Part shown: positions 39,635-41,100 of the stretch, in pieces
How positions within the stretch are numbered: position 1 is the first letter of the stretch
Layout: each line of letters opens with the position of its first letter
From: a phage
Length of the DNA stretch: 44,717 bases
Direction: 5' to 3' (one strand)
Assembly (NCBI GenBank): GCA_036609835.1
Contig: GCA_036609835.1_4358.1
Program-made: the position numbers and the translations under genes
The notes under the pieces: generated by a model
The model's input: the letters and a program-made list of their open reading frames with translations, nothing else
Database searches by the model: none
Told to the model about the DNA's origin: nothing

Positions 39635-39922
39635 ATGAGTACGCCTGAGGGGCGCATACAGAAATACGCAAAAGAGCGATTCGAGGCCATCGGGGGCCTC
39701 GTCCGTAAACTGTCTTATGAGGGGCGCTCCGGCGCTCCCGACCTGCTGGTAATTCTCCCGGGCGGCATCGTCTGGTTCGTCGAGGTGAAGAAAGACGAAA
39801 GCACGAAGCCTGACCCACACCAGTTACGAGAGCATGAGCGGATGCGTAAACGTGGTGCGAATGTTTTTGTCGTCGGGTCGTTCAAACAGGTTGACGACCT
39901 AATAGCGAACTATTATAGTTAG
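39635..39922 (+). CDS. VRR-NUC domain nuclease, 95 aa
   Basis: GAPDLLVILPGGIVWFVEVKKDE carries the D...E.K core. Confidence 0.6.
   Translation: MSTPEGRIQKYAKERFEAIGGLVRKLSYEGRSGAPDLLVILPGGIVWFVEVKKDESTKPDPHQLREHERMRKRGANVFVVGSFKQVDDLIANYYS
39887..39915 (+). promoter_or_regulatory. Promoter TTGACG-N17-TATAGT with AACTAT/ATAGTT palindrome, inside the 3' end of the VRR-NUC gene
   Basis: ttgacgacctaatagcgaactattatagt; downstream tagttagccctacacc matches the 33488 promoter. Confidence 0.5.
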
Positions 39923-39952: not shown

Positions 39953-40144
39953 ATGAAATACGAATATGACCGTAAACCAGCCCGCGACATCGTACCTGGC
40001 GACATGATTTTCAACGTTAAGACCCGCCGCCCTGTTGCCGTTGATACGGTATTCGTCGAGTCAAACGGTAAACTGGTTATCGAAGATGTAACCGGTAACG
40101 TTACGGCATTCGGGCGTAAAGAGTTAGTTCTGGTGGCGAAATGA
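39953..40144 (+). CDS. Hypothetical protein, 63 aa
   Basis: AAGGAAT RBS; ATGA-coupled to methyltransferase gene. Confidence 0.45.
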   Translation: MKYEYDRKPARDIVPGDMIFNVKTRRPVAVDTVFVESNGKLVIEDVTGNVTAFGRKELVLVAK

Positions 40145-41100
40145 ACTATTACAACGAATGGGATAAAGGCGCAGCCGCGTGGCTGCGTGAACTAATAAAA
40201 CAGGGTCATATACCTTTTGGAGTTGTAGATGAAAGAAGCATTACCGAAGTTAAGCCAGAAGACCTCGACGGGTTCACCCAGTGTCATTTTTTCGCTGGTA
40301 TCGGCGGCTGGCCTCTCGCGCTCAGACTTGCGGGAGTTTCGGAAGATACGCCTATCTGGACGGGAAGCCCGCCTTGCCAACCGTTTAGCGCGGCAGGAAA
40401 GCAACTCGGACAGTTCGACCCGAGACACCTCGCACCTGTGTTCCTCGACCTCATCAGCGAGTGCCACCCTCCAGTCCTCTTTGGGGAACAGGTTGCGCCA
40501 GCAATTGCAAAATCGTGGATGTGCGATTTACAAACTCACCTGGAAGGAGAAGACTACGCCGTCGGGTTTGCCGTACTCCCAGCTTGTAGCGTCGGCGCAC
40601 CGCACAAACGCGACAGACTGTTCTTTGGCGCACACCAATTGGCCTACACCGACAGCGAACGACTTCAAAGGCAGCGGGGTGACAGTGATACGCAAGGATG
40701 GGAAGGACAGAACCTTCGACCGTCTGGATTATGCTACGGAACAGGGTTTGATGGCGGCGTGGCAAACGCCGAAGGCAATGGACGGGGTGTTTGCGACACC
40801 CCGAACCAGTGGGAGGCCGATGCATCGGGCTACGCATCTGCAAACGCAGGCCATAGCGCAACTAACAGACAACAGCGACTTACCGCCGGTGGCGAAGCCG
40901 ACCCGCATCACAGCTTCTGGTCAGATGCTGACTGGCTCGGATGCAGGGATGGAAAGTTCCGGCCAGTTGAACCCAGCACATTCCCGCTGGCTAATGGGAT
41001 ACCCGCCAGAGTGGGACGATTGCGCGGTTACGGCAATGCCATCGTCCCGCAAGTAGCCGCTGAATTTATAAAGGCATTCATGGGGGCGGTAAATGAGTAA
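40141..41100 (+). CDS. DNA (cytosine-5) methyltransferase; annotated frame (319 aa) appears discontinuous, with the middle segment reading better in the +1 frame (ORF 40229..41056)
   Basis: Frame 1: FFAGIGG (I), [13 protein letters not shown] (IV), FGEQV (VI-like), PHKRDRLFF (VIII), [12 protein letters not shown] (X). Frame 2 over 40640-41020: [28 protein letters not shown]. Confidence 0.6.

Follow-up and report, generated by a model that had tools for sequence, protein, structure and literature searches.

We analyzed a pair of overlapping genes in a 44,717-nt stretch of phage DNA (NCBI GenBank assembly GCA_036609835.1, contig GCA_036609835.1_4358.1; the whole stretch is called the window). 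The longer gene, alpha, encodes a protein with the motifs of DNA (cytosine-5) methyltransferases, and a second open reading frame (ORF), beta, is nested in it in the +1 frame. Our findings make it very probable that these are two overlapping genes which are independently translated from one mRNA and jointly encode one heterodimeric DNA (cytosine-5) methyltransferase. The coding information is genuine in either frame and relates to methyltransferases. An initial annotation, made from the sequence alone, had described one methyltransferase gene with its motifs split over two frames, and this split is indeed present: motifs I–VIII and X lie in frame 0, and WPTP-type repeats together with a motif IX-like segment lie in frame +1. 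As causes it had considered compensating indels, recoding, or a mosaic or inactivated gene; two overlapping genes for two subunits were absent from its list, and this explanation fits the data.

Two open frames under separate constraint

Both ORFs are present exactly as they had been annotated (Table 1), and 86% of alpha is overlapped by the 275 aa of beta. With its 275 codons the nested ORF far exceeds every other same-strand alternative-frame ORF within the genes of the window. Those next in length have 95, 89, 83 and 77 codons (minus strand) and 73 codons (plus strand), so that the earlier statement that all others have 75 codons or fewer holds for the plus strand only. The start signal of beta (GGAG, a spacer of 6 nt and ATG at position +88) was also found in Kagunavirus relatives, and a large environmental clade carries AGGAG, a spacer of 8 nt and ATG at the fixed position +106. 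In all loci examined the beta frame is open from its own ATG. As no later beta-frame ATG precedes the conserved N-terminal module (N-module) in the window, translation from 40229 is the simplest reading, and the conserved Shine–Dalgarno sequence and ATG point to a translation start that belongs to beta itself.

The genome that hosts the locus is that of a Kagunavirus (Guernseyvirinae) E. coli siphophage, and the region is matched by 327 phage records. Beyond these, we found the two-frame layout in ~50 of the 62 IMG/VR viral loci that were retrieved with alpha (alpha identity 43–80%). In these ~50 loci motif IV lies in frame 0, WPTP and LMG[YF]P lie in frame +1 and GNAI lies in frame 0 again; both frames are open almost end to end, and the distance from the motif IX Leu codon to motif X (GNAI) is exactly 41 nt. 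All loci have motif X in the alpha frame. A tblastn search with the C-terminal half of beta returned 227 phage records from many host genera. We inspected five distant phages, namely Rhodobacter phage RcPeripeteia, cyanophage Cr-LKS3 (Cylindrospermopsis), Lacticaseibacillus phage R23.9, Krischvirus KMB43 (T4-like) and Pseudomonas phage PMG1, and observed beta nested in the +1 frame of alpha in all five. No single-frame homologue occurred among these five loci or among the ten longest beta homologues, and beta was not found as a gene apart from alpha, being nested in nearly all alpha-retrieved loci and in all five distant beta-retrieved ones. Clustered at 90% identity, the beta homologues form 5986 groups, and at 50% identity they have 10176 representatives. 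In PHROGs the two proteins belong to separate families (phrog_363 for alpha, phrog_1008 for beta), both annotated as DNA methyltransferase. The annotation of relatives is inconsistent: phage phiEc4 has beta only, fEg-Eco06 has alpha only and in K1ind1 the two are annotated together (‘C-specific methylase’ and ‘Mte8-like’), and the few beta homologues that are named by a source are mostly called ‘hypothetical protein’.

The two frames are conserved in different places. In 30 distant loci, aa 1–170 and 259–313 of alpha are conserved, and aa 171–258 show near-zero identity with many indels; in beta, aa 1–63 are weakly conserved, and aa 64–130, the W[PQ]TP..D repeats and aa 223–266 are conserved. 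As a null model we resampled synonymous codons in pairs of distant phages while the protein of one frame was kept fixed. In the doubly coding stretches the identity of each frame was ~2-fold the passive expectation, with z = 2–10 except for the C-terminal module (C-module) with beta fixed. With alpha fixed, the excess of beta reached z = 2–7 over the motif VI–VIII overlap and the C-module (z 3–7 in the C-module). With beta fixed, alpha showed an excess of z 3.6–9.7 in 12 of 12 pairs for the N-module stretch and of z 3–7 in 9 of 12 pairs for the C-module, where the remaining 3 of 12 pairs were not significant. Over the beta leader the identity corresponded to the passive expectation (z ~0). We also counted the differences between moderately diverged pairs by codon position of beta, whose position 2 is the wobble position of alpha and whose position 3 is its own. 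At positions 1/2/3 we found 4/72/24% of the differences in the leader, 9/64/27% in the N-module, 14/17/69% in the cassette (2541 differences) and 11/45/44% in the C-module, position 1 being non-wobble in both frames. From the codon-position and resampling patterns together it follows that the constrained frame changes along the gene in the order alpha, alpha plus beta, beta, alpha plus beta, alpha. These two measures supersede the per-frame ratios of nonsynonymous to synonymous polymorphism (pN/pS), for which the values of the cassette among close relatives (0.59 for beta and 1.26 for alpha) are confounded by the overlapping frames as well as by recombination of the cassette.

Stop codons are avoided even where a frame is only a passenger, that is, in beta over the leader and in alpha over the cassette. 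In 15 loci these stretches contain no stop, with 1.3–15 expected, and for cassettes of 213–249 codons the absence of any stop has P<1/3000. In the window, 4.2–4.5 stops are expected per passenger stretch, given the protein of the other frame and the codon usage of the phage, and none is seen (P ~0.004–0.005).

The cassette between the two doubly coding stretches (~40621–40920) is swapped among close relatives (loci L001–L011), with identities of 1–85% inside and of 93–100% in the flanks. A mosaic structure, as had been considered for the gene, is thus confirmed for the exchange of the beta cassette only and does not extend to the flanks. The cassette appears as a recombination hotspot. Its length varies, resulting in beta proteins of 220–275 aa within the genus and of up to 424 aa in environmental loci. 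In four loci (L025, L027, L063 and L023) an insertion splits the two C-modules apart. With this insertion, beta keeps ...RWLMGFP.EW at a place where alpha reads AWTQQMVDGVP, and alpha has a copy of its own downstream (FPLGKDIPARV...GNAIVP in L025 and L023); this resolved overlap is a sign that neither peptide can be spared. An ORF for an HNH endonuclease (L023, 2429–2827) follows right after beta within the alpha gene, whose own frame (481 aa) is open across it. In L025 (1568–2929; also in L027 and L063) beta has 453 aa, carries a C-terminal HNH/endonuclease VII-like fusion and runs past the end of alpha. We also noticed one in-frame stop within the beta cassette of L044 (2180–2182) and a frameshift in alpha of L014 near motif I (~1700–1750), which are possibly natural inactivations or assembly errors.

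Predicted roles of the two chains

Table 1. Position of the two genes and of their segments in the window
Feature	Coordinates	Strand	Description
Alpha gene	40141..41100	+	Frame 0, 319 aa; proposed catalytic subunit of a C5-cytosine methyltransferase; PF00145 and phrog_363 (aa 1–318)
Alpha II/III-like segment	40147..40266	+	YYNEWDK...DERSITEV; placed ahead of motif I
Beta start	40219..40231	+	GGAG 40219–40222; spacer of 6 nt, the last three being the beta-frame stop TAG 40226–40228; ATG 40229–40231
Beta gene	40229..41056	+	Frame +1 relative to alpha, 275 aa, entirely within alpha; proposed target-recognition subunit; phrog_1008 (aa 3–270)
Beta leader, aa 1–63	40229..40417	+	Open, no amino-acid constraint of its own; nucleotides constrained by alpha
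Alpha motif I	40285..40311	+	HFFAGIGGW, S-adenosylmethionine (AdoMet)-binding loop; from alignment to M.HhaI
Alpha motif IV	40363..40389	+	GSPPCQPFS, catalytic Cys; P78, C79, F82 and S83 invariant in profile A3
Doubly coding stretch 1, beta N-module over alpha motifs VI–VIII	40418..40618	+	SS.SA.LQSSL..RL...L, then Y.LTWK...TPSG....L.AS..RT
Alpha motifs VI–VIII	40480..40626	+	Motif VI FGEQV 40480–40494; motif VIII 40597–40626
Alpha linker, aa 165–259	40633..40917	+	Unconstrained, indel-rich, Gly/Ala/Arg-rich, stop-free
Beta variable cassette, aa 136–222	40634..40894	+	W[PQ]TP..(D) repeats; proposed target-recognition domain
Doubly coding stretch 2, beta C-module over alpha C-module	40895..41026	+	Beta R.TASGQ.LTGS.AG...; motif IX-like (LMGYP) at 40964–41014
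Alpha motif X helix and C-terminus	41026..41097	+	GYGNAIVP...; motif X 41026–41070; G298 and N299 invariant

When both frames were aligned to methyltransferase profiles, as the initial annotation had proposed, frame 0 gave a partial match and the +1 frame no significant one. Alpha scored 59 bits against Pfam PF00145 (cut-off 22; E = 6.8e-16), matched solely over aa 72–166, which correspond to profile positions 64–162, and 36 bits against TIGR00675, under the cut-off of 100.65. A profile of alpha relatives (A3) aligns with M.HhaI residues 3–173, covering motifs I, IV, VI and VIII (E = 5e-25). In this alignment we find FFAGIGG and PPCQPFS, as well as GEQV opposite MENV and HKRDR opposite QKRER of M.HhaI, and C79, E116, R157 and R159 are invariant among the alpha relatives. 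The C-terminus of alpha was aligned to M.HhaI by no profile method.

The order of the alpha motifs is unusual at the N-terminus. The II/III-like segment ahead of motif I is identical in 7 of 9 residues to M.HhaI 37–45 (VYSNEWDKYAQEVY...GDITQV; E = 0.006, BLASTP), the II–III segment of M.HhaI is an insertion relative to the alpha profile, and only ~15 aa lie between the motif I helix and motif IV in alpha. This suggests, as far as sequence comparison goes, a local permutation of the motif order to II-III-I-IV. The classical order I-II-III-IV is seen in alpha of the Lacticaseibacillus phage (L068).

In its middle, alpha does not read like a normal protein. The Gly/Ala-rich composition and the rare Arg codons that had been noticed there are borne out: within the 93 residues of aa 170–262 there are 15 Gly and 10 Ala, and all 7 Arg codons are of rare types (CGA three times, CGG twice, AGA and AGG), compared to CGT or CGC for 368 of the 511 Arg codons in the long genes of the window. 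The linker sequence of alpha is the out-of-frame shadow of beta. The enteric-type codon usage that had been ascribed to the +1 frame over the same span is only a marginal advantage (0.113 log2 odds per codon in the +1 frame versus 0.063 in frame 0), and codon-usage log-odds did not separate alpha from beta.

In beta, the N-module has ten invariant residues (S78, L81, L85, L89, G97, T104, W105, G113, L119 and R125). The repeat WQTPKAMDG of the cassette lies at 40760–40786 and a further beta-frame segment at 40640–40672. At nucleotides 40960–41010 the alpha and beta peptides both resemble motif IX of M.HhaI (RKLHPRECARVMGYP), and runs like GGGATACCC give Gly-x-Pro in both frames. None of the listed beta homologues carries a Pfam domain, and in-frame PF00145 is missing from the ten longest. 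Two of these ten are fusions, P0399 (497 aa) with a Dam N6-adenine methyltransferase domain and P0397 (758 aa) with a DUF2800/PD-(D/E)XK nuclease module.

Structure predictions were made with AlphaFold2 (AF2) and judged by the predicted local distance difference test (pLDDT). For beta, with an alignment of 100 sequences, the mean pLDDT was 57; a helix (aa 76–95) and a hairpin (aa 101–123) were predicted with pLDDT 86–94, aa 220–240 were moderate and the leader reached 40–56. The alpha model, built from a shallow alignment of 40 sequences, was poor (mean pLDDT 43), with the lowest values of 23–28 in the linker (aa 169–258). Foldseek searches against the PDB gave weak C5-methyltransferase matches for the alpha model (E 0.006–0.05, TM score ~0.2) and noise only for the beta model; these results are not used as evidence, and from the AF2 models we use the pLDDT profile. 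No conserved recognition domain is seen in alpha, whose linker combines near-zero conservation and many indels with a pLDDT of 23–28.

In the single-chain enzyme M.HhaI, the large domain consists of the N-terminal two-thirds together with the C-terminal helix of motif X, and the recognition region and motif IX are held by the small domain, which is inserted between these two parts. Applied to the phage locus, this layout identifies alpha with the large domain, its insert being replaced by a translated spacer, and beta with the small domain. We therefore propose the following model, which rests on motif and constraint patterns. Alpha would provide the catalytic AdoMet-binding large domain, comprising motifs I–VIII and a C-terminal module that ends in the motif X helix, and its two halves would be joined by a translated linker of ~95 aa that is required only to stay stop-free. 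Beta would provide the small, target-recognition domain, made up of the leader, the helix-plus-hairpin module, the WPTP..D cassette and the motif IX-like C-module, and may dock on alpha by analogy with M.EcoHK31I. The complex would then methylate the DNA of the phage, with the target sequence given by the beta cassette, and so protect this DNA from host restriction, and a swap of cassettes within the conserved flanks would alter the specificity.

The locus lies in the replication module, in the order VRR-NUC nuclease (39635–39922), small ORF, alpha/beta and helicase. The stop of the upstream ORF (63 aa) overlaps the ATG of alpha (ATGA), and alpha extends 8 nt into the SNF2-type helicase ORF that follows downstream (start 41093); these overlaps of alpha with its neighbours suggest translational coupling across the replication module. 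No endonuclease partner was seen in the replication module around alpha/beta.

Alternative readings of the locus

Several points weigh against a two-subunit enzyme. Beta has no significant match in Pfam, NCBIfam or the solved structures of the PDB, and for this reason its identity rests on comparative evidence. When the beta profile was aligned to M.HhaI by hhalign, the top local alignment fell on KLHPRECARVMGYPDSYKV (residues 273–291), which is motif IX, with a non-significant E = 0.38. The confident AF2 fold is limited to aa 76–125 of beta, and the model of alpha is poor. The constraint statistics use pairs that are phylogenetically related and not independent of each other, and our literature searches turned up no experiment or proteomics on this phage family. 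Moreover, the C-module of alpha resembles motif IX in its spacing too (GK.R...P.......G.P), and alpha might be catalytically complete without beta.

The rival that survives best, although we consider it unlikely, is the following: alpha alone is the methyltransferase, and beta is a genuine overprinted protein with another role, such as a DNA-binding regulator, an inhibitor or a non-catalytic accessory protein. Besides the failure of beta to match a methyltransferase profile or structure and the motif IX-like spacing ahead of motif X in alpha, the fusions of beta homologues to Dam, PD-(D/E)XK/DUF2800 and HNH domains speak for this reading, as they present beta as a portable module. However, between motifs VIII and IX such an enzyme would have no conserved DNA-recognizing segment, as the linker is unconstrained, and the variable cassette that is expected of a recognition domain sits in beta. 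The same hhalign result that falls short of significance places the best local match of beta exactly on motif IX. Furthermore, beta is not found apart from alpha, and in M.EcoHK31I both chains are required.

A second rival is programmed frameshifting, with a +1 shift after motif VIII and a −1 shift before motif X, by which a single chain of motifs I–VIII, recognition domain, IX and X would be made instead of or besides alpha and beta. In single-chain enzymes motifs IX and X follow the variable recognition region; here this arrangement is not found, as motif X lies in alpha, and it is the +1 frame that holds the recognition-like cassette and the best match to motif IX. A frame-0/+1/0 chimera would restore the canonical order, and the fixed spacing of 41 nt between motifs IX and X counts in favour of this rival, but the spacing is explained by double coding. 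Between 40900 and 41056 the beta frame lacks an X XXY YYZ heptamer, and at 40618–40640 neither a stop nor a hungry-codon +1 signal is present. The apparent junctions that had been placed near 40627–40640 and 41020–41030 are not junctions: beta is conserved upstream of the supposed first one and alpha upstream of the second, so that both frames are independently conserved on each side. Frameshifting would also leave unused 100–250 codons that are nevertheless kept open, as well as the Shine–Dalgarno sequence and ATG of beta. We therefore regard recoding as very improbable. The only match of the slippery-site scan was T TTT TTC at 40287–40293, in the alpha frame inside motif I; a −1 shift at 40287 leads into the third frame, which has 3 stops between 40231 and 40629, and the heptamer is probably incidental.

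Finally, an artefact or decay, in which two compensating indels have put the middle of a single-frame gene out of frame, would account for the out-of-frame look of the frame 0 middle with its rare Arg codons and Gly/Ala richness, but is next to inconceivable given the same arrangement in the 327 phage records, in ~50 independent metagenomic contigs with identities as low as 43% and in five phage groups that are only distantly related, the absence of a single-frame homologue among the five distant loci and ten longest beta homologues, the stop avoidance and purifying selection on both frames, and identities of 43–95% that exclude relatives being copies of one mis-assembled record.

Comparison with known systems

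The closest relatives of the locus are direct orthologues in the Kagunavirus phages K1ind1, K1G and K1H (GenBank GU196277-81; NC_041897), with ~91% DNA identity over the flanks and another, shorter beta cassette (beta 230 aa). In the K1 phages both overlapping coding sequences (CDSs) are annotated, as ORF29 ‘C-specific methylase’ and ORF28 ‘Mte8-like protein’. In the literature that we searched, nothing reads this pair as two subunits of one enzyme; searches for Mte8, for methylation in Kagunavirus/Guernseyvirinae and for overlapping phage methyltransferase genes returned nothing relevant, and no account was given there of the phage family with its size and double-coding anatomy or of a recognition domain in beta. 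The kind of arrangement itself is already known, from M.EcoHK31I (1995) and from the annotation of both CDSs in the K1 phages. What may be new, though here we remain rather doubtful, is a very large and ancient family (~10,000 clusters at 50% identity, in phages of Proteobacteria, cyanobacteria and Firmicutes), whose recognition domain as a whole would be a separate subunit on a nearly full-length nested +1 ORF, with two doubly coding modules and an exchangeable cassette accompanied by a translated shadow spacer.

If this is true and undescribed, the pairs would rank among the longest and most widespread cases of same-strand gene overlap in double-stranded DNA phages. For annotation, reading the pair as one two-subunit enzyme would correct thousands of records and advises caution against ‘repairing’ it as a frameshift. 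With the cassette placed on a subunit of its own and bordered by sequence that is nearly immutable owing to its double coding, phages would have a route to fast specificity change versus host restriction. For research on overlapping genes, unconstrained, singly constrained and doubly constrained segments would adjoin each other in a deeply sampled family. Natural heterodimeric C5-methyltransferases serve as scaffolds for targeted methylation (PMC2836561), and the family would supply thousands of alpha/beta pairs for such engineering.

The likeness to other systems is partial. M.HhaI (PDB 1MHT, 10MH) differs from the phage pair in being a single chain in a single frame, with motifs II/III between I and IV and not before I. 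In the Rz/Rz1 spanin of phage lambda a nested +1-frame gene is found as well and the two products form one functional complex, but proteins and function are unrelated and the embedded gene is much shorter. M.AquI was reportedly described by Karreman and de Waard in 1990. This natural C5-methyltransferase of Agmenellum quadruplicatum has two subunits and needs both chains; it is split in the variable region into an alpha with motifs I–VIII and a beta with motifs IX–X, encoded by consecutive genes (PMC3404938). In the phage, motif X instead shares a chain with motifs I–VIII, and beta is nested and not downstream.

The best parallel is M.EcoHK31I of E. coli HK31, which is said to have been described by Lee, Kam and Shaw in 1995 with an alpha of ~309 aa and a beta of 176 aa, compared to 319 aa and 275 aa for the phage alpha and beta; a later reference on the enzyme is Fung et al. 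2006. Its beta gene lies wholly inside alpha in another frame, alpha holds motifs I–VIII along with X, beta holds motif IX, and both are needed (PMC2836561; PMC3404938). Methylation in vivo was obtained with alpha and beta from separate plasmids, and the N-terminal part of beta is needed for binding to alpha (PMC2836561). The phage locus shares the nested beta in another frame and the layout of motifs I–VIII and X in alpha, a likeness drawn from the published architecture and not from sequence, and the binding part of the M.EcoHK31I beta fits the confidently folded N-module of the phage beta. A tblastn search of plasmids returned 28 records, mostly named ‘DNA cytosine methyltransferase’, none of which was identifiable as the EcoHK31I system; their neighbour genes were not inspected. 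M.EcoHK31I is part of a restriction-modification system, unlike the phage gene with its place in a replication module. A further difference again counts against our assignment of roles: the predicted recognition domain of M.EcoHK31I was assigned to alpha (PMC2836561; PMC3404938), whereas the constraint pattern in the phages puts it in beta. If our reading is true, the phage beta would be the C5 analogue of a separate specificity subunit, and the assignment of the recognition domain to alpha in enzymes of the M.EcoHK31I type would have to be revised.

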